This document shows positions 16,098 through 63,928 of a stretch of 64,000 nt of DNA, one piece after another. The translations under genes were made by a program, and so were the position numbers. The notes below the pieces were generated by a model, which did no database searches, had not been told where the DNA came from, and saw only the letters and a program-made list of their open reading frames with translations. The stretch covers positions 64,001 to 128,000 of IMG/VR virus record IMGVR_UViG_3300036791_001056. The stretch is one strand, 5' to 3'. Source of the DNA: a virus. How positions within the stretch are numbered: the first letter of the stretch is position 1; each line of letters opens with the position of its first letter.

Positions 16098-16913
16098 TTA
16101 GAGACCGAGAGCGGTGTAGAGTGGAGTGATGAAGGTACCGTTATCAATGGATGCGTGAGAGATGCGGTAAACGCGGTAACCACGCGCAACTAGCTCTGTA
16201 TCACGTTCTGAGTCACGGGCAGCACACTCAACACTCTTGTGATGGGCACCATCCACCTCAATGTCAAGACGAAGTGCCGGTACATATAGGTCTATCTCCC
16301 AGTTTGACGAGGTGTCGTGCGGGATGAATGGAACATCTGCAGTAATCAAGATGATGGCCACCACTGATTCATACGTAGTCAGTGGTCGTTCTTCTAGCAT
16401 CTTGAAGCTGTTGCGCAAGTTACCGCGCATCTCACGCCATGCTTGCTTCATGGCTGTTGACCGGCGGCCGGCGTATTTTGGATCCATCGTTACACGCTGA
16501 AGACCGGCAGCATGACGTTGACGGAAATTTTCGTCTGCTGCGAACTTCTCGCGCATAATCTCAGACTGCAACTCACGGCGGCCAGGCCGATTATTGACTT
16601 CGGTGGTTGCTGCCGAACGCCGCGCCTTAGTTCCGGGCTGAGCCTCTACCTCAGCACGATGCGCCCGGTATTCTGGGTCTTCCCAGCGCGCTTGCATCGC
16701 TGCTTGCCGCCGTTGATCAGATTCAGGTGTGTGAGTTTTTTGTGCTGCTTCTGACCGTTCTTCCGCGGTCATCCGCTGCTTGCTGGCGCGAACGCCGGCG
16801 GACACCTTCTTCCGGTATTCCGGATCTTGCGCCCGCCGGCGCATCGCTTCTGCTTGTCTTTCACGCCGTTCAGGCGTCCACCCTTTACTTGCGCCTGCTG
16901 ATGATCCTGGCAT
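16098..16913 (-). CDS. Free-standing Vsr/DUF559-like (PD-(D/E)xK) homing endonuclease
   Basis: C-terminal EIDLY...IEVDGAHH...RDSERD..L..RGYRVYRI; basic helical repeats at N-terminus; TGATATACT extended -10 just before ATG. Confidence 0.85.
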   Translation of the reverse strand: MPGSSAGASKGWTPERRERQAEAMRRRAQDPEYRKKVSAGVRASKQRMTAEERSEAAQKTHTPESDQRRQAAMQARWEDPEYRAHRAEVEAQPGTKARRSAATTEVNNRPGRRELQSEIMREKFAADENFRQRHAAGLQRVTMDPKYAGRRSTAMKQAWREMRGNLRNSFKMLEERPLTTYESVVAIILITADVPFIPHDTSSNWEIDLYVPALRLDIEVDGAHHKSVECAARDSERDTELVARGYRVYRISHASIDNGTFITPLYTALGL

Positions 16914-17986: not shown

Positions 17987-18971
17987 CGTTATTTGTTACC
18001 GCCGGGAGAGAGGCGGGACACGTCATTTCTGCATGTCTCTGCAGCTTTACCATCGACTGCAGACCGGACTATATCATCACCTGCTGCGTCTGATGCGCAT
18101 TAGCTCGTTAAGCGCTTGAATCTGCGTTCCCTCGTTAAACACCGGTGACTGCTCACGCGGCAGCATCAACGATGATACACACTGATCAGCGTCATCAGCG
18201 ATGGATTGGTACCGGAATCTTACCACGTGATAACCAGCAACTTCAATGTCACACTGCCTGATTTTATCGCGCTCCGGACTATATCTCATGTTGTGAGACA
18301 CACCATCAGCTTCTATTACCAGCAAATGCTGAGCCAGCAAGATGTCTACGATGTACGTTCCATCCAAGACAACTGCCGGTGCTTCAAACGACAGTGAAGC
18401 TCGCTTAAGAGCTTCACGCAGCTCAACTTCAGCGGCAGGCACCTTGTCACCGCGCTCCCGTGCAGTGGCAATACGCCTAAGCCACGCTTCACGCTGCCGT
18501 TGTCGATGACCAGGACGATCCCAGTGATACAGTGGCTTTTCTGGGTCAGCCCAAATCCGCTGTACCATCTTAGACTGCTGCTCACGCCGTTCGGTGTTTT
18601 CCCACGTCTGACGTGTTACTGTGCGTGCCTTTTCGTGATTTTCCGGGTTAGCCCACCGATTCTCTCGGCCGACTCTTCCAGGATCGCGAACTACGACACC
18701 AGCATCAGCTAGCATCTTTCGCACTATCCGGTACTTTATACCGTACATAGCAGCAAGCTTGGTCACGCTACCGGCAGCTTCATAATCACGCTGAAGCTGA
18801 TTAACTGCTTGCAGGGCCTCGCGTGTAGTCTCTACGGAGTCCCCAGGCTCAGGGGTTCCCTCGGTGTTGTCCATGCAGTCATTCTAACACAAAGAATGAT
18901 GATCGGAGGATGTTCACCGATACAGCGAGGTTATTCGACGCGGGTCACCCCGCGAAGCCTCCAAGAATTTA
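17987..18971 (-). ncRNA. Group I self-splicing intron (985 nt) in the major capsid gene
   Basis: Exon1 ends CCTT; IGS TTCTTG-GAGG pairs with CCTT (P1, U.G) and with exon2 CAAGAA (P10). P3 CCTCGC/GCGAGG, R element GTAGAGACTAC, S element GATATAGTCC, terminal G at 17987. Confidence 0.92.
18077..18874 (-). CDS. Intron-encoded Vsr/DUF559-like homing endonuclease
   Basis: N-terminal HTH; YIVDIL...VIEADGVSH...RDKIRQ....AGYHVVRF; extended -10 TGTTAGAAT 6 nt before ATG. Confidence 0.88.
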   Translation of the reverse strand: MDNTEGTPEPGDSVETTREALQAVNQLQRDYEAAGSVTKLAAMYGIKYRIVRKMLADAGVVVRDPGRVGRENRWANPENHEKARTVTRQTWENTERREQQSKMVQRIWADPEKPLYHWDRPGHRQRQREAWLRRIATARERGDKVPAAEVELREALKRASLSFEAPAVVLDGTYIVDILLAQHLLVIEADGVSHNMRYSPERDKIRQCDIEVAGYHVVRFRYQSIADDADQCVSSLMLPREQSPVFNEGTQIQALNELMRIRRSR

Positions 18972-30100: not shown

Positions 30101-30183
30101 TCAGCGTGATCAGCATCACGCAGCGCTTGACGGCTGACCACCCGCGGGCTGAAGTCTGCCATGCGGTTGGCCAGCGTGCTCAC
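27121..30183 (-). CDS. Head-region polyprotein with SH3/KOW-like module and putative C-terminal ART-like domain
   Basis: KVGPEGYIHGYICVRPPCG tag; GDRV...GTI......YVKWDG module; C-terminal VVRY / LSSW / GEII spacing resembles R-S-E ARTs (tentative). Confidence 0.75.
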   Translation of the reverse strand: MSTLANRMADFSPRVVSRQALRDADHAEKQLRRTVDLSGEEIWEDQQPQSPPAAGGGAMQMPPVPGGVPGFTPGAEPPRWDGAGNQPRSTADLPESHDDALPSSGRVAAQRPHAAFPQGPQGMDGYWPPGGHGGTQPSGQDLRGGSLGVPPAGTARSVKKRVALADLIKVGPEGYIHGYICVRPPCGPRYAQAEVDKRKGTVSHAGVKIGKVPSKDADGKYSAIHYKTDAAGVAVREKLPARYDTAQQAFDAIPLYHNISKLAEQDAPADVKQHLESARQHFAAGAALSAAQDLRLAKNRAEDAGDGALASHIKHVNDAILGIESEPEPDPNEQLWTELASREHMSPYERDLMTAAEENASEDHEPHTPSWYESFARTHADLLDQRGEWQGDVAAAHVISGRTRLPGYVPTDDEHEALRRGYEAARDNIGLDSPDAQNLKRAIQRSGQRRAAAARERAAGGFASTAEWEADLARREAERAEPATPADVSTVTAGEATAFRSGDRVSAGKKTGTITSYPTSGGFYVKWDGGKKQVWVSTDKLSLAPGEVAREAERVEPAAPPAPHVPAAPQRVISHTQLDATQIADELQSIDQAARTVPGVSSYQSPVVSAGNAGKTLRRDDAALYPREPLPGEHAPAEIVRVIGDDLRRVDWAIENKQPNEFGFRSEPIPPAGIAALRVIRDRLQAVRDQVAAADTSSPFVAGDFTSGTRKALVGGFDEHLSGQVVPGAAAPDAAQHIKQLIGMTNLSFPENDETDKLVHDKKDRSARLAQLKRNFITRAVAAAGVPDNAARAVAAEVASQISRWSFSGNDADTVIGKYTRSMAMTEPPLLRVTDFAGRHDTHDFLHGDEARYGYSDTSPEAAQRRRDALSYWSARAQQHYTDQVLKETGQHDRPLKVVRYVYGDYARNILSADREGRSWRASARLLSSWAEPKGSSTAKAFIKRFTDAKAATRSTAFLRGSPVQPATDFARLEQSIQPDQVFAHWRGESTLRNDVKVKGEIITRNSQISSDNTKVTSAA

Positions 30184-33100
30184 GTCATCACCGCACTCTT
30201 GGGCATCGCTGTCATGTATGCGATAGTAACGCCTCGCTGTGAATCACGATGAACTGCGGTCAAGTGCAGCGGCTGATCTCTGTCGAGGATCAGCTCCCGC
30301 TCTTCTGGTGAGTCTGAGAACGGCTGCGCCCAGACAGCAGGTGTACCCTTTGGCACAGTGATGTGCAGAACTGTCTTATTCTCACGACCCACATCATATG
30401 CGCCTGACGTAAGTGACGTCGAGGAGAACCCATGATCCGCGATCACATCACCCGGTGACAGATCACGCAGCGCCTGCTCATCATCCAGCTCACGATGCAC
30501 GATTACAGCAGCAGGCAGTGGCTGCATCGCTGATGACAGATGCTCACTCATCTCTCGGGAGTGAGCATCAATGTTGCCACTCCGCAGCCCATCATTAATG
30601 TCCTGGTAGCCGTTGCCAATGTAACCAGTGATGGCCCCGACCTGCGCAGGTGTGTACGTGAACGCACGACTCAACTTACGGCCAAAGGCACGTGCCTCTG
30701 CTGCGCTGGTAATCTCACTAGCATTAACTGTGCCTGTTACCCGTGACCACTCACCGTGAGCATCACGGGGCTCAAGTGAGTCGAATCGCTTTTCAACGGC
30801 AGCGCTACTCACCGGAACAAGCCACGGCTCACCGTCACGCAGCTCGATGATCACGTCACCTGAGCTCAGCTCACCGGGCTGCGCATCAGCTGGTTCTGCG
30901 GCAGCAGCACTCTTCGCCACGCTCTCGTACCGCGCGTGCCCCGTTGCCTCCTGCGCCGCGCGGAAGTCAGCCTCGCTGAAGCCGTACTCACCGAGCCGGT
31001 TCATCTTGGACACTGCCTTGGACGCGAAGTCCGGGTAGTGCCAGACGGTCACGCGCTGGCTCTGCATGTCCACAACCTGGACAATCAGCGCGGGCCGCAA
31101 GTTCGCGCTCGCCACCGCGGCGCGCTTGCGCTCGATCTCCTCACGCTTGATTGCCGTCTTCAGGTTCTGAGCGTTGCTGTTGAGCGTCTTCAGCTCGCCG
31201 CCGTAGTCACCGATCTTAAAGTCCAGCGGCGTCTGCCGCGACATCCAGCCGCCCGTCGCTGAGATCGGCTCGTACGTCACGCCGAGCTGCTGCTCGAGCA
31301 GGTGCGCACCGTGAGCAGCGAACAGCTGCTCGAACGTGTCACCAATCTCAGACTTGCCCATCGGGCTGCCCGTGACCGGGTTGACGAACTGAGTGGGCGT
31401 CTGGACGGGATCGCGCTGGCCCTTCCAGCGCTTGGACGGAACGGCGCCTGCTGTCCACTCACCGCGCGCATTACGCAGCTCAGCTGGGTCGAACTTCTTC
31501 TCAGCCCGGCCATACCACCGGTCGCAGACGTGATCCGCGTCGATGTGCCCGCGGACGAGGGTGCACTTACCGTGCTCATCATCTACGTCGCTCGGCCGGT
31601 ACATGACGCAGCTGGCGCAGCGCTGGCTGGCGCGCCGGTCTGCCTGCCGGTAGTCAACCGTGCCTGGGCTGAGCAGCTCGGCCTTCTGGCACTTGATGAA
31701 CAGCCCCGTGACGAGCTGCTTCTGGACGGGTCCCGCCGTCTCGAGAGCGCGCCGGACGCGCTTCGGGTGCTCACGCAGCTCCGGCCGGATCGCCGGGTTG
31801 TCCCTCAGCTCGCGCGGGTCCCACCAGGCGATGGCCTCGGGCTCCTCATTGTCCGGGTCGTCGGGGTTAGCGCCCTTAGCGCGGTCGAGAATCGGTACAT
31901 CAGACTCCCGGCCCACGCTGAGCACGTGCCCTCGGTACGGTCCCTCACCGGTCTCCCAGGTCCCGGTGACGCTGCCAGCCGGCACGGGAAGTCCAGTTTC
32001 CTCACCCCACTCGCGCCGGGCCGCCTCCTCCACGCTCTCACCGGGGTCCTCGGGCCGGCCGCCGGGGAACTCCCAGTACCCACCCGCGGGATCATCCTCA
32101 TTGTGGGCGCGCTGGATCATCAGGACCCGGCCCGTGTCACGAGCCCGCACCGCCAGACCTCCGGCCACGAAGCCGTCTGCCGTCAGCGGCGCAGCAACTG
32201 ACGCAAAATCGGACTTAGAGACAGACCACCTATCTGCGCTATCATACGCTGTTTCACCGTGGCGCTGCAACTGTGACTTGACTGCCGTTACTGCTGAGCC
32301 ACGCGGCATCGGCACCGGGTTAAAGCCCGGCAGTGGCGGCGCGGTAATGTGACTGAGATCGATGCCAAACGCGCTGCCCGGCACCAGGGCGCACCTACAG
32401 CGCGGATGCCCGGGCGGGCCCTCCCGGCCGTCCGGGAACAGCCCCGTGACCGGAACGGCACCCGCCGCCTCATTGCCGCGGCAGATCTTGCAGACGCGCT
32501 CATCCGGCGCGACCAGCCACTCCTTGGTGTCGATCCCGTCATCGCGGTACCGGTCCAGCGTGCCGCACGTAACCGCTCGAGCGAGCTCCGTCTGCGCGAT
32601 CATCTCCGCGCGCTCTGGTACAGTCAATAGGTCCTGGATGCGGCGGGCCAGCTCACCCACGCTCTGCCCCTCGGCGAGCGCCCCGGCGATCTCCCGCGCC
32701 AGGTCATCCAGCCCCGTCTGAGAGACGGACTGGATGGTGTTGACGCCCCACTGCTGCAGCAGCTGCTGCAGGCGCGGCCCATCAGCCACCAGCGCGGCCG
32801 CGTCGAAGTCACCGGGCTCCCAGCCGCCCCAGTCAGGCACCTCGGCGGTGGCGGCGATCTCCGGCGTGGCGATCCCGGCGATGACGTGCTCAGCCGAGAC
32901 GGTGCCGAGGGCGTACCCCTCGGTCCAGAGCTGCCCGAAGACGCGCCGCAGCGCGGCGGCGATCAGCTCGCTGATGTGCTGCGCCGCCCACTGCGCGGTG
33001 GCGCGGATCACGCCGCCGAAGAACTGGCTGATGAACTCGCGCACAGCCGTCATCGCTGATGCGAAGGCGCCCTGGATCTTGGGCGCGTAGATCTTCACCA

Positions 33101-36100
33101 GGTCGAGGTCACGCAGCCAGCCGGGCCAGCTCGGCTCAGCCTTTGCTACCCACTCGTACTCAGCAGGAGCGAGGCGAAAGGTGCGCACCTTCGCGACGCT
33201 GACGGCCTCATCAGCGGTCAGCCCCTCCGCCATGCTTCTCGCGATGTCACCCAGCGCGGTGTTCGGGATGAAGCACGCCGTCCACGTCGTGACGGGCCGG
33301 CCCTTGCGCAGGTGCCGCGCCAGCGCCTCGAACTCCGCGCTGGCGCGCTTATCCATGTCAGGCACGCTGACCTTGGCGGCGCTGGCGCGCTCGCGGTTAG
33401 CGGTGACGGCAGCCGCGTGACCCGGCGTGGGTGCACCCGCGCGGCTCGGCTTGGCGCCCGCCGGTGAGGCAGAGGCGGGAGCAGCCAGCGCTGCCTGCCG
33501 CTCCTGCATCGTCTGGTCGTGGGCCTCTTGAGCGCGCTGCTCTTGCTGCACTCCTGCGGCGGTGCTGCTGACCGTCTGCGTGGTCTGAGCGTTGGTGCCA
33601 GCGGTCTGAGCGCGAGTCTGCTCCGTCTGCGCCTGCGTCTGCTCGGTGCCCGCTTGGGTCTGCGCCGTCTGCGCCACCGTCTGAGCGATGCCAGCGTGCG
33701 TTGCCGCGGTGCCCGCCTGCGTCTGAGCGATCTGCGCCTGCGTCTGCGCCGACTGCTGCGCGGTGCTCTCGACCGAGTTCGCGATGCCCATGTGCGTCTG
33801 CGCCGTCTGCGCCTGAGTGCGCTCTGTGCCGGCCTGTGTCTGAGCCAGCTGCGCCTGAGACTGCGCCACCGCGTTCTGCGCCTGCTGCACCGCCGTCGAG
33901 AGCGGCACCGGCCCGTTGGGCGTGACGATGAGCGGCTCGCTGGACTCCTCGAGGCCGTACGGCTGCAGGTTGAGCTCTTGCCGGCACTCGTCGATGGTCC
34001 GCAGCCCGTTCTGCATCTGCTGGACCAGCACGCCGGTGAGCGCGTCCTGGTCCTCCTCTTGCTGCAGCCCCTCGAAGGTGAACTGCATGTCGTCCTGCTG
34101 GCAGATCACCTGCAAGACCGCGTTGAAAATGTCCGAGAGGAACTTCAGCAGCGGCGTGACGCCCGTGTCCTCGCTGCGGTCGTGCGACTGCTTCGCCATC
34201 TGGTTCTGCGCACCGGACGAGTGCGACGAGCTGCGCCCCGGCGTGAACCCGATCTCCAGCGGCGTCACCCCGAACGCTGAGCAGACCTCGCTGATGAGCA
34301 GCTGGTCCAGCTCGTCCGCGGTGGTGATCGGGCGCTGCGGCTCGATCTTGCTGTTCGGTGGTAGGACGATGATCTTCTGCTTCCACGCCGGGTCGCCCGC
34401 GATGGCGTTCAGCGCGTCCTGCAGCTCGCGCAGCTGGTTCGGAGTCATCGCCGTGTCGCCCGGGATGACGTATGCGGCTGGCACGGTGGACTCCGAGAAG
34501 AATTCGTACTGGTACCCCTGCTTCTGCAGGCCCGTCATGATCGGGATCAGGGCGCGCTCTACCGGCGGGAAGCCGTACGGCGTCCACGTCCGCGGGACCA
34601 TCGGGACGTACAGCAGCTGGTCGCCGCGGAACTCAGCCAGCTGCCGGCCCTTCAGCCCGCTCTCCTCGATGTCATCATCAAACATCATGGTCATGAGGTC
34701 CGAGCGCGGCACGCCGTAGAGATACTGCTGATAGGCCACGCAGTTCCCTGACCATACGGGATGCCCGTTTCGCCGGGCATAAATCACACCGTTAGGCACA
34801 GTAACGCAGTAAACGCGTCCTGAGTACTGCACCTCTCTTACGCGACTTGCCGGGTAACCAGTTGTGCGAACATACATCCGGTAGCAGCCGTCACCAGAAG
34901 CTCGCACCGATGACGAGTAGCCGAGCTTCTGGATGATCTCTTGGAAGTCATCTGCCATCTGTGTGCTTGAGGTCGCAACAGCGTACTGGGCAGCTCCACT
35001 TCGCTGAGCCTGCGGCCGGCTCTTACTGTACCGGACCTCAGCACCGTCACCCAAGCAGTAGTACCGCCAGAAGATCTCAAGCTGCCGCTTCGGCATCTCA
35101 AGAATCTCTGCTGGCGCGAACTTATCCTTAGCATAACCAAACTGATGGAGATAGCGCCACAGCGCCTTCGCTCGGATCGCCCAGCCAGCCAGCTGCCCGT
35201 TCGTCACATGGTGCTTAACGCCAAAGATCTCGCTGATCAGCCGGCCAAACTCTGCAGCTCCCTTACCATTCTCAGTCTGGCAAATCATAAAGTTGTAGCC
35301 GTTTTTAACGGGATCGTGACTCAGTGAGCCCTCAGACAGGTACATCCCCATGAAGGCAGCATACTGGTCACCTGTCATTGAGATAGGCTCATCATGCCGC
35401 GGGTTATGCCGCCTGCAGCCACACTCGGGTGAGCACCTCCGCGCATAATGCACAGCACCAGTATAGTTAATTTTTACCAGGTTAGCGCGGACTGGGACAG
35501 CTGGTCCATAACTCACGTGCACTGGCTGGTTGTCATCAGCCCACGTGAACGTTTGCCCGGCTGGGGTAAACGTCACGTCACGAAGTTCCCGGCCAGTCCA
35601 TACGCTCGTGGCAACAAGACCAACAGCGGCTGCGTGCACACCCCGTGCTTCACGCCGATGCTCATACTCTAGAAGATGCTGAGCCGGCAGCAACCACTCA
35701 CGCCGTGCTGTAGTATGACTCCGAGTAAGCTGACCTCTATCATCACGGTATGTGCTTGACCTTACCCAGCCTTCAGGACCGGTAGTCGTCAGCACACGGT
35801 GATCTGGCGTTACGAGAGAGTCGGTACCCCGGCCATAGAAGTGAACCATTGGCCCACTGTACGGGTAGTCAACATACGCAACTGGCTGCTGCCACTCAAA
35901 TTCTCCGTTACTGGATCGAGTCGCTACCTCTTCATCATGCTTAAGATCACGGAATAGCTTCCAGCCACTACGAGTGAGAATCTCAGTGTCATCACTGTAG
36001 CACGGCGGGCGCGGCGTGCCACCGTGGAGGTTGAGCAGCGGCCGGATGGTGGGCCCGTTGATGAGCATGAAGTTCTCGAGGTCTGAGCCCAGCACGCCCT

Positions 36101-36776
36101 GGCCCGCGCCCTTGCCCCACGTCGGGATCATGAGGATGGACAGCGCGTCGAAGACCAAGATCTCCTCGATCATCGCGGAGATCCACGTCGCGTAGCTGAA
36201 GTAGTTGCGGTCCGGCCGGTTAAAGAACTTCAGTGCCTTGGCCCGGCGCTTACCAAAGTCGGCCTGCAGCGCCGGTGAGCTCTGGTACGCCTTCTGCGCC
36301 TCAGCGGTGGGGGTAATGTCCCACTCGATGCCTCGGACCTGATTCTTCCGGAACTCGATGCACGATCGGGCGATCGAGTAGACGTCAGCCAGCTTCTGGA
36401 GGGTGCTGAAGCTGACGAGCTTCAGGCCCTCCTGCCCCGGCTGCCCCGTCGGCAGGTTCCAGCCCGGCTCGTACTGGTACCGCCGCGGCACGGGCCTCTC
36501 GGCACCCGGCGGCGGGGTGTCCACGCCGGTCGGCAAGATCGGTGTGAACGGTGAGAACGCGCCCGCGGTGAAGTCCTCCGTCGGGCGCGGCAGGTACGGC
36601 CCGTACAGCGCGCGGTAACCCAGCCCCTCATTCCCGAGCTGCATCGCCAGCGGCGAGAACCGGCCGGTGCTCTGCCCCGGCAGCGCCAGCCCGCTCGATC
36701 CCTGCGGGCCGGGAGTCGGCCGTGCGCCCCCCGGGATGGTCAGGGCACCCCTCAAGATCGCGCCGCGTGATGCCAT
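30180..36776 (-). CDS. Portal protein (intein) fused to MuF, Nudix, Cys4 module, PD-(D/E)xK-like nuclease and ADP-ribosyltransferase
   Basis: Portal: PYGFPPVE, AFGVTP.EIG, TIDECR..L.L.P. MuF: AEMIAQTE...HPRCRC. Nudix: WEFPGG...GES.EEAARREWGEETG. Nuclease-like: PLDF...GELKT. ART: INDGLR/FSSTS/EERELIL. Confidence 0.92.
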   Translation of the reverse strand: MASRGAILRGALTIPGGARPTPGPQGSSGLALPGQSTGRFSPLAMQLGNEGLGYRALYGPYLPRPTEDFTAGAFSPFTPILPTGVDTPPPGAERPVPRRYQYEPGWNLPTGQPGQEGLKLVSFSTLQKLADVYSIARSCIEFRKNQVRGIEWDITPTAEAQKAYQSSPALQADFGKRRAKALKFFNRPDRNYFSYATWISAMIEEILVFDALSILMIPTWGKGAGQGVLGSDLENFMLINGPTIRPLLNLHGGTPRPPCYSDDTEILTRSGWKLFRDLKHDEEVATRSSNGEFEWQQPVAYVDYPYSGPMVHFYGRGTDSLVTPDHRVLTTTGPEGWVRSSTYRDDRGQLTRSHTTARREWLLPAQHLLEYEHRREARGVHAAAVGLVATSVWTGRELRDVTFTPAGQTFTWADDNQPVHVSYGPAVPVRANLVKINYTGAVHYARRCSPECGCRRHNPRHDEPISMTGDQYAAFMGMYLSEGSLSHDPVKNGYNFMICQTENGKGAAEFGRLISEIFGVKHHVTNGQLAGWAIRAKALWRYLHQFGYAKDKFAPAEILEMPKRQLEIFWRYYCLGDGAEVRYSKSRPQAQRSGAAQYAVATSSTQMADDFQEIIQKLGYSSSVRASGDGCYRMYVRTTGYPASRVREVQYSGRVYCVTVPNGVIYARRNGHPVWSGNCVAYQQYLYGVPRSDLMTMMFDDDIEESGLKGRQLAEFRGDQLLYVPMVPRTWTPYGFPPVERALIPIMTGLQKQGYQYEFFSESTVPAAYVIPGDTAMTPNQLRELQDALNAIAGDPAWKQKIIVLPPNSKIEPQRPITTADELDQLLISEVCSAFGVTPLEIGFTPGRSSSHSSGAQNQMAKQSHDRSEDTGVTPLLKFLSDIFNAVLQVICQQDDMQFTFEGLQQEEDQDALTGVLVQQMQNGLRTIDECRQELNLQPYGLEESSEPLIVTPNGPVPLSTAVQQAQNAVAQSQAQLAQTQAGTERTQAQTAQTHMGIANSVESTAQQSAQTQAQIAQTQAGTAATHAGIAQTVAQTAQTQAGTEQTQAQTEQTRAQTAGTNAQTTQTVSSTAAGVQQEQRAQEAHDQTMQERQAALAAPASASPAGAKPSRAGAPTPGHAAAVTANRERASAAKVSVPDMDKRASAEFEALARHLRKGRPVTTWTACFIPNTALGDIARSMAEGLTADEAVSVAKVRTFRLAPAEYEWVAKAEPSWPGWLRDLDLVKIYAPKIQGAFASAMTAVREFISQFFGGVIRATAQWAAQHISELIAAALRRVFGQLWTEGYALGTVSAEHVIAGIATPEIAATAEVPDWGGWEPGDFDAAALVADGPRLQQLLQQWGVNTIQSVSQTGLDDLAREIAGALAEGQSVGELARRIQDLLTVPERAEMIAQTELARAVTCGTLDRYRDDGIDTKEWLVAPDERVCKICRGNEAAGAVPVTGLFPDGREGPPGHPRCRCALVPGSAFGIDLSHITAPPLPGFNPVPMPRGSAVTAVKSQLQRHGETAYDSADRWSVSKSDFASVAAPLTADGFVAGGLAVRARDTGRVLMIQRAHNEDDPAGGYWEFPGGRPEDPGESVEEAARREWGEETGLPVPAGSVTGTWETGEGPYRGHVLSVGRESDVPILDRAKGANPDDPDNEEPEAIAWWDPRELRDNPAIRPELREHPKRVRRALETAGPVQKQLVTGLFIKCQKAELLSPGTVDYRQADRRASQRCASCVMYRPSDVDDEHGKCTLVRGHIDADHVCDRWYGRAEKKFDPAELRNARGEWTAGAVPSKRWKGQRDPVQTPTQFVNPVTGSPMGKSEIGDTFEQLFAAHGAHLLEQQLGVTYEPISATGGWMSRQTPLDFKIGDYGGELKTLNSNAQNLKTAIKREEIERKRAAVASANLRPALIVQVVDMQSQRVTVWHYPDFASKAVSKMNRLGEYGFSEADFRAAQEATGHARYESVAKSAAAAEPADAQPGELSSGDVIIELRDGEPWLVPVSSAAVEKRFDSLEPRDAHGEWSRVTGTVNASEITSAAEARAFGRKLSRAFTYTPAQVGAITGYIGNGYQDINDGLRSGNIDAHSREMSEHLSSAMQPLPAAVIVHRELDDEQALRDLSPGDVIADHGFSSTSLTSGAYDVGRENKTVLHITVPKGTPAVWAQPFSDSPEERELILDRDQPLHLTAVHRDSQRGVTIAYMTAMPKSAVMT
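34743..36002 (-). mobile_element. Intein (420 aa) with LAGLIDADG-like endonuclease in portal
   Basis: PP|CYSDDTEILT.SGW, VTPDH, MGMYLSEGS, YCLGDG, VYCVTVP...WSGN|C; lower GC than flanks. Confidence 0.92.
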
Positions 36777-44385: not shown

Positions 44386-45045
44386 GTGTTAATGATGTTC
44401 AGCGAGAGCGTGACCAGCCGGCTGGTTAACTGGAAGTTCGAGTCTGCTGAGCGGCTGATGCGCACTGAGCGGGAGCAAGAGCCGGGTAAGTATGAGGGAG
44501 ATGAGTGGGACACCGTCACAGCGCTCGCGCAGACGCTCGGGAACTCGGGCTGGTTCTCCGGATCGCTCAGTGACGTCGTTCGCGCAGCGGTGGCGTGGCT
44601 GATACAGCAGCCGCTGAACGCACCAGACGATGACTCTTCCGGCAGTGAGGTCGTGACCGACTTGCTCGCAGCTGATGTCGCGCGGCGCGTTGCCCGCGAG
44701 TGCCTGGTCATCGGTGTACCGGACATTGAGCACTGGCCCGTTAACGCCAGTTCGAACTGTTGCTGTCGCGCTGGCAACAGCGGCATCGTCTGCGGTGCGT
44801 TAACTTATCGTGATTATGGAAGTGGTGAGCTGTTCACGGCAACGTGTGAGGCTGAGCTCAGCGGGCACACGCTCGCTGAGTTGCGCCAGAGCATCATCCG
44901 GCACCTGTGCAGCACCTCTCACGTCCGAGATCCATACGTGTCAGGTGGTACGTTCATGCTGAGCAGCACACCCCGTGACACCTTCAGACAGTCCGAGCCT
45001 GATCAGCCGGGCAGTGTGAGTGCACCACCGGCCGCATCATTCTGA
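44386..45045 (+). CDS. Hypothetical protein
   Basis: ORF downstream of a GAACGGAG box; exact start uncertain. Confidence 0.55.
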   Translation: MLMMFSESVTSRLVNWKFESAERLMRTEREQEPGKYEGDEWDTVTALAQTLGNSGWFSGSLSDVVRAAVAWLIQQPLNAPDDDSSGSEVVTDLLAADVARRVARECLVIGVPDIEHWPVNASSNCCCRAGNSGIVCGALTYRDYGSGELFTATCEAELSGHTLAELRQSIIRHLCSTSHVRDPYVSGGTFMLSSTPRDTFRQSEPDQPGSVSAPPAASF

Positions 45046-45319
45046 GCATCTCTCAGCCAAGCGTAACTTAGTTAAGATGAGTGAAGACAAGCAAAACCGA
45101 GATCAGCGACAGCAAAGACAAGTGCAAGCCTAGCTTACTCAGTGATTAGCTAAGCGCAGCGCAGTTAAGATCGGCGCAGTTAAGATCGATTAAGATCAGC
45201 AAAGCAAAGCTCAGCGCGACCAAGCTGAGACCAGCACGGCAGCAGAGCCTGATAAAGCGAAGATAAGATCAGCAGAGTGCTCAGCGCAGCGCGGCGTAGT
45301 CACGCCGCGCTGCTGAGCA
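45043..45319 (+). repeat. Long period-5 NNAG(C/A/T) array ending in hairpin (45278..45319)
   Basis: Roughly 45 units by eye, e.g. TAAGC GCAGC GCAGT TAAGA TCGGC GCAGT TAAGA TCGAT TAAGA TCAGC AAAGC AAAGC. Confidence 0.85.
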
Positions 45320-45965: not shown

Positions 45966-46274
45966 TCACGGCAACAGAGGTGAGTTTTGCTCAATCATGG
46001 GGTCCGCTGTCCTCTTCAGTGCCTCGTTATGCGCGGCGCACGCTGCCTCAGCGAGTTCGGGCGTGTCCATCATCCCGATCACGGTGTCGGCCTTCCAGTC
46101 ATCTTCTCCGCCCGTCCGGGCGTAAATGGTGCGGCCGAGAGACCGGCCGGTGCGCCATGAAAGCGCAGTGAGATCAGTGGCTACGACCCTCATCCTCTCA
46201 GGAAACTCGGACGGCGCCTCCACCATCAGCCGCTTCAGGTCTCGAGGACAACTGGTGAGCCGCACTTGGGGCAC
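45966..46274 (-). CDS. Hypothetical protein
   Basis: WRTGRSLGRTIYA...IGMMDTPELA motif; true start probably downstream of 46274. Confidence 0.6.
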   Translation of the reverse strand: MPQVRLTSCPRDLKRLMVEAPSEFPERMRVVATDLTALSWRTGRSLGRTIYARTGGEDDWKADTVIGMMDTPELAEAACAAHNEALKRTADPMIEQNSPLLP

Positions 46275-48556
46275 GTCAAGCGCGGCTGCTTAGTGGCTGG
46301 GTCAATGCTGACGAATGGGTGCTGGCAGCTCTCGCACCGGGTGACCCCGTACGCCGCCAAGAACGACCCGCCGATGAGGTCCTTCAGGGCTGAGATGGCC
46401 CAGACACACGCGTCAATCCGGTCTGGTGACTCCCCGTCCATGGGAGTCCACGCACAGTTATGGACAAGGATCCCATTTGCAAAATACTCATGCTGCCCGG
46501 TCACCGTAATGTTGTACACCGCGCTTGGCACCGCGTTCACCTGGACGGAGTGGACCGTGCTTTCGGCCACACTCACGTGAGCAAAACGCTGCGCGAACTC
46601 CTGTTGAGATGAACTCTTGATCACACTCAACACACTGGACCGTGATTTCTCGCTGCTTACGCCGTTGCCATGCATCAGTGCTCTTCTGCTTCTGCTGGTC
46701 TCCCCGGTATGCGTACATACCAGTGACTCGCTCAGATTTATGGTGAGAGATGTGATCATGGCGTGACAATAGCATGAGATTGCTGATGTCATTATTGTCG
46801 GGGTCGTGATCGATGTGGTGCACGTGATGCCCGTTGGGTATGGGACCGTGATATTCTTCCCAGACGTCGCGATGGAGAAGTTTAGCGCCCCGTGACCGTG
46901 ATGTGATCCAGTACGTGCCGTTCCACTTGTAATACCGCTCACCGTTGCGCTCGATGAATGGGAACGCTGATTTTCGGCTGCGACGGGACTTCCGGCTTTC
47001 ATGCACCTTGTAATCTTAGCACCAGGAACCAGCGCACCAGCGGGAACAAAGCCACTTCCCGGGCTGAACACTGGGTGATCAGGTGTGCACGTGATGGTGT
47101 CGCCGTTTTTTGCTGTGATTGTTACGGTCCGGCGAATGCCTGTAAAGCCAGAGTGCGTGACTGGCCGCCAGCCAGCTCTCGTCATTACCAAGTCACGGCA
47201 CGTTACCTGCTCAATGGGAATCTCACCACGCATGGTTGTTATTGCTGTCCCAGCGATCAAGCACATCTGGTCCTCAAGATACGGGAACGTGCCCACGTGG
47301 CTGATGCGGCGCTGCTCATACAACGATGAGATCGGCTCCGCGCGGATGGCCTTGCCGCGCGTGGCGCGCACCGCCTGGAACGGGATGTTCGGGTCCACCG
47401 TCTTCAGCAACGTCCCGATGAAGTCCCCGCCGTTGTTGACCTCCGCGACGACGCGGTCTGCCTTGAACTCATGGTACACCGCGATGACCCTCTTCATCGC
47501 CTCCATGGGTGTGGCGCGCAGCGTGAAGTCACCAAGCACGTAGCCGCGGCCGTTCTTAGCCGCACCGGCCACGATGACGCCAGTCTGGGCGCTGGCCTCG
47601 CCGTCAGTGACTGCCGGGTCCACCCCGACGACGACGCGGATGAGGTCGGGCACCAGTGCCGGGTCGGTGACGCGGGTCTCTTCGAACCAGTCGCGCTGCC
47701 ACAGCGCGCCCGGCACATCATCCAAGATCTCGGCCTCGAGCTCTTGCCGGCCGAGGCGCGTGCCCAGCAGCGGCGCGATGACGTTCTCCTGGTACTCCTT
47801 CGTCAAGTTCTCGATGTTGTCCATCGTCCGGCCGCGCGTGATCATCGTGGTCGTGCGCTGGAGAATGCCCATCCGTGATGGGTCCGGGTCACTCGTGCGC
47901 AGCAGCGCGACCGGGCGCGGCGTCGTGGCTATGACCACCTGCGTGCGGTAGTCCTCGTCCCAGCCGGTCTTCTTAGGCAGCCGCAGCGTGATGACCAGGT
48001 TGCTCCACGTGGTGTCTGCCACGAGCCCCTTGTGCGCGTCCTGCCAGAACGCGGCCTCGTCCGCCCAGGCAAAGTGGAACTGCGGCCCGCGCAGCCGCCA
48101 CGGCTTCTCAGCCGAGAAGGACTTGAACCCAGACCCGTTGGCGAGCCGCACCTCACCGAGCGTGCGGTTGTACCCGTCGTCCTCCGAGTGGTTCCGGAAC
48201 TCGTCACGGTTGAAGCACGCGATGAGTCCGCTCTCGCCCTCGAGCATGGTGTCACGGGTGTCAGCAAAGGTCTTCCCGACCAGCGCAATGCGCGCTCCCG
48301 GGTAGTCACGCGCCTTCTGCGCTGCCCACTCGGCGGCAGTGCGCGACTTCCCCCAGCCTCTTCCAGCGAGAATGCACCACACGAACCACGTACCCGGCGG
48401 AGCCAGCTGCTCCGGTCGCGCGATCTCGCGCCAGGGACGCTTGATGAGCCCGTCTTCCAAGTCGCGCACCCGCTTGATCTCCTGCTGCAGCTCGCGCAGG
48501 CGCCGCAGGCGCTCGAGGCGCAGCCCGGCGAGGGAGTCCGCGGTCTTGGCTGCCAT
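46235..48556 (-). CDS. terL: Terminase large subunit (intein-containing)
   Basis: Walker A AGRGWGKS, LRGPQF..AWADE, TTP, VGVDPA, E.NNGG, SPDRIDA. Confidence 0.95.
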   Translation of the reverse strand: MAAKTADSLAGLRLERLRRLRELQQEIKRVRDLEDGLIKRPWREIARPEQLAPPGTWFVWCILAGRGWGKSRTAAEWAAQKARDYPGARIALVGKTFADTRDTMLEGESGLIACFNRDEFRNHSEDDGYNRTLGEVRLANGSGFKSFSAEKPWRLRGPQFHFAWADEAAFWQDAHKGLVADTTWSNLVITLRLPKKTGWDEDYRTQVVIATTPRPVALLRTSDPDPSRMGILQRTTTMITRGRTMDNIENLTKEYQENVIAPLLGTRLGRQELEAEILDDVPGALWQRDWFEETRVTDPALVPDLIRVVVGVDPAVTDGEASAQTGVIVAGAAKNGRGYVLGDFTLRATPMEAMKRVIAVYHEFKADRVVAEVNNGGDFIGTLLKTVDPNIPFQAVRATRGKAIRAEPISSLYEQRRISHVGTFPYLEDQMCLIAGTAITTMRGEIPIEQVTCRDLVMTRAGWRPVTHSGFTGIRRTVTITAKNGDTITCTPDHPVFSPGSGFVPAGALVPGAKITRCMKAGSPVAAENQRSHSSSATVSGITSGTARTGSHHGHGALNFSIATSGKNITVPYPTGITCTTSITTPTIMTSAISCYCHAMITSLTINLSESLVCTHTGETSRSRRALMHGNGVSSEKSRSSVLSVIKSSSQQEFAQRFAHVSVAESTVHSVQVNAVPSAVYNITVTGQHEYFANGILVHNCAWTPMDGESPDRIDACVWAISALKDLIGGSFLAAYGVTRCESCQHPFVSIDPATKQPRLTCPKCGSPVVLET
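46457..47263 (-). mobile_element. Intein (269 aa) in the TerL nuclease domain
   Basis: DQM|CLIAGTAITT...TPDHP...VYNITV...EYFANGILVHN|C. Confidence 0.92.
46488..47006 (-). CDS. HNH endonuclease in an alternate frame nested inside the intein
   Basis: LHRDVWEEYHGPIP.GHHVHHIDHDPDNNDISNL.L...H; C-terminal CVEC...FCSREC; extended -10 TGCTAAGAT 6 nt before GTG. Confidence 0.88.
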   Translation of the reverse strand: MHESRKSRRSRKSAFPFIERNGERYYKWNGTYWITSRSRGAKLLHRDVWEEYHGPIPNGHHVHHIDHDPDNNDISNLMLLSRHDHISHHKSERVTGMYAYRGDQQKQKSTDAWQRRKQREITVQCVECDQEFISTGVRAAFCSRECGRKHGPLRPGERGAKRGVQHYGDRAA

Positions 48557-63283: not shown

Positions 63284-63928
63284 TCACCTGGCTAATGATG
63301 CCGGCAGCTCTGGCAGGCCGAGCACGCCGTCCTGCCAGAGCAGCTCGAGATGAGCGGTAAACGAGCTGTATGTGATCTCTGCCGCTGGCCGCCGGCCCTC
63401 ATCATCACGACAGCCGGGGTTAACACACCTTACGACGCCGTGCAGCGGCCAGTACCGCAGCGTGAACCCAGCGCAGAACGGGCACGGCCGCTCCCGCTCA
63501 CCGGGCTGCCGGGGCAGCCGGATGATACTGCTGGCCTCTCCGAGGACGCGCGCCGCCTGCCCGCACCACCTCTCCAGCCACCGCGCGGCGTCCAGCGCGC
63601 GCTGGGTGCCCGCTGCCTCAGCCAGCGCCAGGATGCTGCGCAGCGCGATGCCGGTGTTCTTATCGCTGGTCCCGCGGTCACGGATGGGCAAGCTGAGCGC
63701 TCCGCGCAGGGACCTCTCGACGTACCGGGCCTCTCGCCGCAGCTCGAAGACCAAGTTGGCCGCCGCGGGACTCCACGGCGGCCGAGGGCCGGGCGGCGTG
63801 AACACGCCACCACTGCCCCGGGCTGGCCACGCCGTCAGTGCCAGCTCGAGCCGTGCGTGCATCTTCACGCTCTGCTCAACCGCCGTCCGGAGCCGGTCGC
63901 GGCAGCTGGCGTCCAGGGTGTAGGGCAC
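63284..63928 (-). CDS. Zn-ribbon transcription-regulator-like phage protein
   Basis: PPW..AAA, CPFC...L......VRC.NPGC.D; TGATACAGT 6 nt before GTG. Confidence 0.7.
   Translation of the reverse strand: MPYTLDASCRDRLRTAVEQSVKMHARLELALTAWPARGSGGVFTPPGPRPPWSPAAANLVFELRREARYVERSLRGALSLPIRDRGTSDKNTGIALRSILALAEAAGTQRALDAARWLERWCGQAARVLGEASSIIRLPRQPGERERPCPFCAGFTLRYWPLHGVVRCVNPGCRDDEGRRPAAEITYSSFTAHLELLWQDGVLGLPELPASLAR

Follow-up and report, generated by a model that had tools for sequence, protein, structure and literature searches.

How does the large terminase gene of a phage come to hold an intein whose own middle carries no recognisable domain, on the same bases that spell a homing endonuclease in another reading frame? 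The locus that raises this question lies in IMG/VR virus record IMGVR_UViG_3300036791_001056, the 146,953-bp genome of an uncultured phage that is rated complete by CheckV. The stretch of DNA that was analysed, hereafter the window, comprises bases 64001-128000 of this record (64,000 nucleotides (nt); guanine-cytosine (GC) content ~64%) and represents the structural and packaging module of the phage. Coordinates refer to the window unless stated otherwise. The element is very likely a mobile class-1 mini-intein in the large terminase gene (terL) that carries a nested, separately translated HNH homing nuclease.

Anatomy of the terL intein and the nested HNH gene

The terL open reading frame (ORF; 46235..48556, minus strand) encodes 773 amino acids (aa) including the intein and matches Pfam Terminase_6N (E 1e-11) and Terminase_6C (E 6e-11). 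A megablast search of terL against GenBank phages gave no match. The intein (46457..47263, minus strand; 269 aa, TerL residues 432-700; Pfam Intein_splicing) is inserted at ...FPYLEDQM/C...VHN/CAWTPM, where slashes mark the junctions. It begins with the cysteine of CLIAGT, has TPDH as block B and ends in VHN, followed by the extein residue Cys+1. The class-1 residues are present (C1, T60, H63, H268-N269, then Cys+1), and Cys1, T60-x-x-H63 and the terminal asparagine N269 are invariant across 43 aligned inteins. Since its catalytic residues are intact and TerL has an essential role, the intein is presumably removed by protein splicing.

Two lobes of the intein are confidently folded in the AlphaFold model. 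The N-terminal splicing lobe (residues 1 to ~92; 46988..47263, minus strand) reaches a predicted local distance difference test score (pLDDT) of 93-99, and the C-terminal splicing lobe (residues ~231-269; 46457..46573, minus strand), which ends in HN with the asparagine in an invariant column before extein Cys+1, reaches 96-98. The lobes match the DnaX mini-intein, gp41-1 and the RecA splicing domain in Foldseek (E 1e-6 to 1e-5, template modelling score TMt 0.82-0.89). The middle of the intein frame (46574..46987, minus strand) is an open, unstructured, Ser/Thr-rich read-through of the HNH gene with a pLDDT of 45-66 and no Pfam domain; residues 100-225 are at about 45-50 in the model built from the 43-sequence alignment. 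As modelled, the intein frame is a mini-intein fold around ~130 disordered residues.

The nested ORF (46488..47006, minus strand) has 172 codons, a GTG start and a TGA stop, and lies in frame +2 (-1) relative to the intein. It matches the HNH_3 family PF13392 (E 2e-16; 59.6 bits against a curated cut-off of 24.8, and 62.9 bits in the genome scan) as well as phrog_15471 'HNH endonuclease' (E 5e-26). Endonuclease_7 was absent from the Pfam scan of the element at E up to 0.01. The HNH catalytic core spans residues 42-85 by its Pfam match positions (46752..46883, minus strand; pLDDT 90-98), and a C-terminal zinc ribbon of the form CxxC-x13-CxxxC (C125, C128, C142, C146; 46569..46634, minus strand; pLDDT 85-92) falls on invariant or nearly invariant cysteine columns. 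All invariant residues of the family in a 64-sequence alignment are kept, namely H45, H63, H64, N72, N76, H85 and the four cysteines. The AlphaFold model from the same alignment has a mean pLDDT of 79.5, with residues 11-95 at 85-98, the ribbon region 120-150 at 85-92 and a poorly folded tail (151-172). I-HmuI (1u3e) is the nearest solved relative in a sequence profile search (E 7e-5) and the top Foldseek match (E 0.06, probability 0.90; TM 0.33 for a multi-domain model). A tblastn search of the HNH against GenBank phages gave no match at E 1e-5 and leads to cultured phages at E 1. Judged by its sequence, the ORF encodes an entire HNH_3 endonuclease of the I-HmuI type with a zinc ribbon. Both halves of the sequence-only reading from which the analysis started, an open intein frame with a featureless middle and a clean HNH nuclease with a C-terminal zinc finger in another frame, are therefore borne out, the former by the ORF list, Pfam and AlphaFold and the latter by the HNH_3 match and the conserved residues.

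HNH residue i corresponds approximately to intein residue i+86, so that the folded parts of one frame lie over disordered parts of the other; the disordered HNH tail overlies the folded C-terminal splicing lobe. Some 170 codons are constrained in two frames under this clean division.

A family of nested HNH inteins

An alignment-based search of IMG/VR with the HNH yielded 231 relatives, of which the best 80 were examined. Together with three further loci (L002, L012, L013) and the window they form a non-redundant set of 58 clusters at 98% identity. The HNH is nested within a longer ORF on the same strand in 44 of the 58 clusters and free-standing in the other 14. Frame +2 (-1) is used in 42 of the 44 nested forms and +1 in two (L043, L097). 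All nested ORFs of the IMG/VR set lie inside inteins with aligned Cys1, TxxH and terminal Asn. They open 147-288 nt into the intein, and their stop is mostly located 31-82 nt before its end. Among 45 host ORFs, 39 match Intein_splicing, 35 Terminase_6N and nine Terminase_3. Three host ORFs of the set also match LAGLIDADG_3.

Inteins of this family are found at no fewer than eight positions in TerL, among them Walker B (...W/C...N/CDELAAW), the LEDQM/C site of the window and of one relative (L033), and several sites around the HDD and D..RY motifs of the nuclease domain. Two viral contigs (L035, L040) encode TerL ORFs of ~1070 aa with two inteins, one at Walker B with a nested HNH and one at HDDF/C.

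The nested form is also found on contigs of metagenome-assembled genomes (MAGs) assigned to Elusimicrobia, Gemmatimonas, Aquiluna, Deltaproteobacteria, Sedimentisphaerales, Terriglobia, Chloroflexi and others. The closest relative found of the window HNH, with 47% identity, is located on an Elusimicrobia MAG contig (L117). The same layout is present in a cultured phage, Acinetobacter phage vB_AbaM_Highwayman (L114; OZ038341.1 10078..12360). Its 760-aa 'terminase large subunit' coding sequence contains an intein (…NHYIDA/C…VHN/CRYAIEK) with an unannotated 225-codon HNH frame in +2. The record lists only 'terminase large subunit' over the nested HNH, an annotation gap. Gene callers allow one frame per strand, and nested nucleases are consequently missed.

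HNH relatives in frame +2 were also seen inside methyltransferase-like ORFs of a Prevotellaceae MAG (L136) and a Proteobacteria MAG (L138). Their host ORFs share the motif ...SHNT(Q/M)KPV..., have no intein junction and resemble the published ShiLan methylase insertion.

Homologs carrying the HNH in frame with the intein had been named in the sequence-only reading as contrary evidence. No in-frame HNH-intein fusion was found in 113 loci (80 viral and 33 genome contigs). Longer proteins with an HNH fused in frame were not found either, which is weak evidence. The long open frames of three loci (L119, L147, L137), considered as candidate in-frame inteins, were rejected as free-standing multi-ribbon or tandem HNH genes. 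These data bear on the notion of an assembly artefact, in which two compensating indels would mask an ordinary in-frame HNH intein. The window does come from a single metagenome assembly, but the same layout recurs across 44 non-redundant viral contigs, is shared by MAG contigs from many phyla and by the genome of a cultured phage, and the in-frame form is missing from the examined loci and from the longer proteins alike. An artefact is thus hardly credible.

Selection and openness of the two frames

The ratio of nonsynonymous to synonymous substitution rates (dN/dS) was computed over the overlap for ten pairs of related nested elements. On the same bases it amounts to 0.08-0.22 in the HNH frame and 1.07-1.73 in the intein frame. 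Substitutions are concentrated at third codon positions of the HNH, as in the pair L072 and L095 with 6, 7 and 21 changes at the three positions. The low ratio in the HNH frame identifies the nuclease as the conserved protein, the intein frame being merely kept stop-free. The dual coding proposed from the window alone is in this way supported by protein-level selection on the HNH across the family, and the comparison of both frames in homologous inteins that had been suggested as a check places purifying selection in the HNH frame only.

Free-standing relatives indicate how the second frame came to be open. In 13 such genes, the frame equivalent to the intein contains 2-17 stops (mean 8.5) and is open in none, which marks the openness of the intein frame as an acquired property. 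The other frame has a mean of 16.3 stops. The strong +2 bias follows from the fact that this frame has half as many stops, and a single origin is not needed to account for it. When the window HNH was re-coded with the codon usage of the phage, the intein frame was open in 7% of trials. Permutation of synonymous codons is a weak test for single ORFs (P 0.002 to 0.64), and the free-standing relatives are the better control.

The frame preference could also be taken as a sign of a programmed -1 ribosomal frameshift that yields a fusion of N-extein, intein-N and HNH, since in 42 of 44 elements the HNH is read in -1 with respect to the intein. The bias is, however, more simply explained by the stop counts in the free-standing relatives (8.5 versus 16.3). 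In the window, a TAA stop stands four codons upstream of the GTG in the HNH frame, and no slippery heptamer of the form X-XXY-YYZ was found by eye between this stop and the HNH core. Most relatives, moreover, have a Shine-Dalgarno sequence and an ATG at the nested start. Frameshifting is therefore very improbable, and separate initiation of the nuclease remains the preferred reading.

Start signals of the nested ORF

A motif resembling a Shine-Dalgarno sequence, often AGGAGG or GGAGG, is found 4-12 nt upstream of 24 of 43 nested ORFs, compared with 11% at control positions in the same inteins. The hexamer TANNNT occurs 5-8 nt upstream in six of the 43, compared with 4% at control positions. 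Most other genes of the window phage have GGAGG-type sites.

In the window, an extended -10-like motif, TGcTAAGAT (TGCTAAGAT; 47013..47021, minus strand), is located six nt upstream of the HNH start codon, within codons of the intein, and is a putative promoter element. Its TAA (47016..47018) is the stop that opens the HNH frame. The sequence-only reading had placed the motif correctly, spacing included, and had interpreted it as an embedded promoter. For this part the support is circumstantial: the same geometry is found at five gene starts of the genome and recurs in two relatives. In these relatives (L058, L060) the extended -10 precedes a nested ATG at an identical distance, and L033 shows TANNNT, without the TG, at this distance.

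The pattern TGNTANNNT-N6-RTG occurs five times in the window against 1.08 expected. The whole genome contains nine occurrences, five of them at the first start codon of an ORF of at least 170 aa, namely a C5 cytosine methylase, two DUF559/Vsr-like nucleases, a DNA-binding-like ORF and the nested HNH. The first DUF559/Vsr-like endonuclease ORF (16098..16913, minus strand) has the extended -10 TGaTATACT and the second, with an additional helix-turn-helix domain (18077..18874, minus strand), has TGtTAGAAT, in both cases exactly six nt before the start and with no Shine-Dalgarno sequence. Both are located in a lower-GC stretch and have the appearance of stand-alone genes for homing-type nucleases with leaderless transcripts. 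The DNA-binding-like ORF (63284..63928, minus strand; 214 aa) is preceded by TGaTACAGT-N6-GTG. It has no Pfam match and hits phrog_1568 'DNA binding protein' (E 2e-7). The methylase gene, outside the window (L185; G000:C1:30342..32153, plus strand), encodes a 603-aa C-5 cytosine DNA methylase with the extended -10 TGgTATGAT six nt before its start.

Three other endonuclease genes had been credited with this geometry. Two of them hold as DUF559/Vsr-like nucleases, and the third has only the DNA-binding-protein PHROG to its name. A specific link of the geometry to endonucleases was rejected, as it is present at the C5 methylase and absent at the genome's other free-standing HNH gene. The methylase case implies that a small group of accessory genes, of which nucleases are only a part, bears this geometry. 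For the window HNH, a leaderless internal promoter is plausible from the sequence pattern, with reasons for confidence and for doubt in balance; otherwise, ribosomes might initiate weakly at the internal start on the terL mRNA. That such a promoter would uncouple the nuclease from late terminase synthesis, as the sequence-only reading proposed, is purely conjectural.

The other free-standing HNH_3 gene of this genome (L186; G000:C1:36675..37223, plus strand, outside the window) encodes 182 aa. It starts directly after a sequence resembling a tRNA 3' end (GGTTCGAACCCCG) and lacks the -10/N6 geometry.

Mobility and target site

Two viral contigs (L003, L004) encode a TerL that is 81% identical and lacks the intein exactly at M/C, where it reads FPYLEDQM-CGWTPG. 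G002, the 93%-complete genome that carries this intein-less terL, contains no HNH of the nested-HNH family. From this it follows that the lineage does not depend on the nuclease, which comes and goes with the intein. The GC content is 0.49-0.57 across the intein and ~0.65 in the flanks. At third codon positions it amounts to 0.56 in the HNH ORF, 0.54 in the N-terminal part of the intein and 0.88 in the extein, and by this contrast with the extein the entire insert is compositionally foreign.

In a quick maximum-likelihood tree of the HNH with support from the Shimodaira-Hasegawa-like approximate likelihood-ratio test (SH-aLRT), clades track the TerL insertion site. The Walker-B clade has a support of 99 and the LEDQM clade of 91, and HDDxVDA and HGH(A) clades are also seen. 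This is the pattern expected if a nuclease is specific for the site in which it is itself inserted. Between these clades, free-standing genes are scattered. In Pseudomonas phage PAE1, Lactobacillus phage CL2 and Salmonella phage Shemara, free-standing relatives are flanked by terL and the portal gene; this position directly beside terL suggests terL-targeting stand-alone nuclease genes as the source.

The location beside terL would also suit a domesticated packaging helper, that is, a terminase-associated zinc-ribbon HNH that assists in DNA end cleavage and is no homing endonuclease. Zinc-ribbon HNH nickases beside terminase genes are described in PMC3592412. A helper would, however, be expected throughout the lineage, and the intein-less G002 has no such HNH. 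The sporadic distribution, the foreign composition and the HNH clades that track the intein site all fit a mobile element. A packaging role is accordingly quite unlikely, somewhat more so than the loss of function considered below.

The mobile nested nuclease is the favoured explanation, and we infer from it a course of events that covers protein splicing, the specificity of cleavage, homing, and how and when the nuclease is expressed. The mini-intein would remove itself from the TerL precursor by protein splicing and leave the phage with a working terminase. The complete HNH gene in the -1 frame would span the linker between the two splicing lobes and be read by the terL ribosome as an unstructured, stop-free linker. 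Translation of the nuclease itself would start separately, at the GTG at 47006, here probably on a leaderless transcript from the intein-embedded TGcTAAGAT, and in most relatives presumably by way of a Shine-Dalgarno sequence on the terL mRNA. During co-infection, the nuclease may nick or cut intein-less terL alleles near ...GACCAGATG/TGYG..., and recombinational repair would then install the intein together with its nuclease gene in the broken allele (homing). In the phage's own genome, the target site would be destroyed by the inserted intein.

Several points weigh against this account. The window copy has no close relative (the best are 44-47% identical), and the evidence for selection is at the level of the family. 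The openness of its intein frame is only moderately improbable (P 0.07-0.11 with codons re-drawn). No convincing Shine-Dalgarno sequence precedes its nested ORF. The -10-like motif of the relatives partly overlaps the conserved intein residues G-D-(T/I)-L and could be a by-product of them; the window keeps the motif despite different intein residues (G-A-K-I). Finally, in a test for a single origin of the composite, the identities of splicing domain and HNH are uncorrelated at depth (Mantel rho 0.09, not significant).

On some of these grounds, the nested ORF might be the fossil of a free-standing HNH gene that landed in the intein, is no longer expressed and has left a mini-intein with an extended linker, open only for terL read-through. 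The want of a clear Shine-Dalgarno site and of a relative close enough for a selection test agrees with such a fossil, and for an open intein frame the selection that acts on terL would suffice. The HNH frame, on the other hand, enjoys no protection from terL selection and has nevertheless kept 172 uninterrupted codons and all of the invariant residues for catalysis and zinc binding. Family-wide, its dN/dS is as low as given above, and initiation signals are enriched at the nested starts. A fossil is therefore unlikely.

Beyond the window element, a joint reading of the family is put forward tentatively, with slightly more doubt than confidence in the whole. According to it, a large, cross-phylum, uncatalogued family of terL inteins carries an I-HmuI-like zinc-ribbon HNH almost always in the -1 frame; free-standing nucleases that target terL have repeatedly been captured by mini-inteins or escaped from them; out-of-frame nesting is the usual association of HNH nucleases with terminase inteins; and the nuclease of the window sub-clade is expressed from a leaderless promoter in intein codons. 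Repeated capture or escape is suggested by the clades that follow the terL site together with the interspersed free-standing relatives next to terL.

Relation to known systems

The novelty of the arrangement had been overstated in the sequence-only reading. Out-of-frame intein endonucleases have been reported (bioRxiv 10.1101/2025.01.02.630785 and 10.64898/2026.09.14.751524), as has an out-of-frame HNH in a methylase (PMC11855218). The architecture of an out-of-frame intein nuclease is known, though recent (2025-26) and with other nucleases.

Gosselin, Arsenault and Gogarten describe actinophage inteins, many of them in terL, with a nuclease on the opposite strand or an endonuclease VII-like nuclease out of frame (bioRxiv 10.1101/2025.01.02.630785); in their survey, HNH is given only as an in-frame domain. 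The endonuclease VII-like inteins resemble the window element in being phage inteins, often in terL, with a same-strand nuclease ORF in another frame between the splicing blocks and an in-frame middle that is predicted to be unstructured. Their proposed origin, a free-standing nuclease gene invading an intein, is a further likeness. Unlike this type ('frame 3'), the nuclease in the window is HNH_3/I-HmuI-like with a zinc ribbon, and the HNH family is far larger, covering many phyla and at least eight TerL sites.

A cyanobacterial dnaX intein with a LAGLIDADG endonuclease in the +2 frame was described by Phillips, DeSimone and Gogarten (bioRxiv 10.64898/2026.09.14.751524). It shares the same-strand +2 ORF over a disordered middle, Shine-Dalgarno motifs before the nested start, and a dN/dS that is low in the nuclease frame and raised in the intein frame. 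It differs from the window element in its cellular host, in the host gene dnaX and in having LAGLIDADG instead of HNH.

The ShiLan insertion is an out-of-frame HNH in a mycobacteriophage DNA methylase with no intein (Arsenault et al., Genes 2025; PMC11855218). Here, too, an HNH is overprinted in an essential-looking host ORF, with a GTG start, no recognisable ribosome-binding site and proposed leaderless initiation. ShiLan has no splicing domains and its insert stays in the protein, whereas the window has a complete intein that would take it out.

I-HmuI and other HNH_3 phage homing endonucleases share the HNH_3 catalytic core, with 1u3e as the best solved match. Unlike the intron-encoded I-HmuI and the stand-alone genes adjacent to terL, the window HNH is out of frame in an intein and has a C-terminal zinc ribbon.

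In the literature on out-of-frame, overlapping and nested intein nucleases, no report was found of an HNH_3 with a zinc ribbon nested out of frame in an intein, nor of the size, host breadth and multi-site distribution of the nested-HNH terL family. These two points are what the analysis adds. Inteins of this kind get misread as decaying or as mini-inteins. With members that are free-standing beside terL, nested at many sites and nested in methylases, the family forms a natural series on the acquisition of nucleases by inteins, as in the 'splicing first' model. Compact site-specific HNH nickases directed against conserved terminase motifs are possible reagents and may also serve as markers of inter-phage gene flow.

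Other features of the window

The 2198-aa ORF of the head region (30180..36776, minus strand) matches only NUDIX (residues 1543-1662) and an ADP-ribosyltransferase exoenzyme (2029-2186) in Pfam at E up to 0.001, and no intein family was detected in it at this threshold. A nested same-strand ORF (33397..34587) in this portal mega-ORF was considered as a second case of nesting and dropped for want of a family match.

Two genes downstream of terL, a non-coding gap (45000..45300) has a GC content of ~0.50 and a strong skew of A over T (0.25-0.41).

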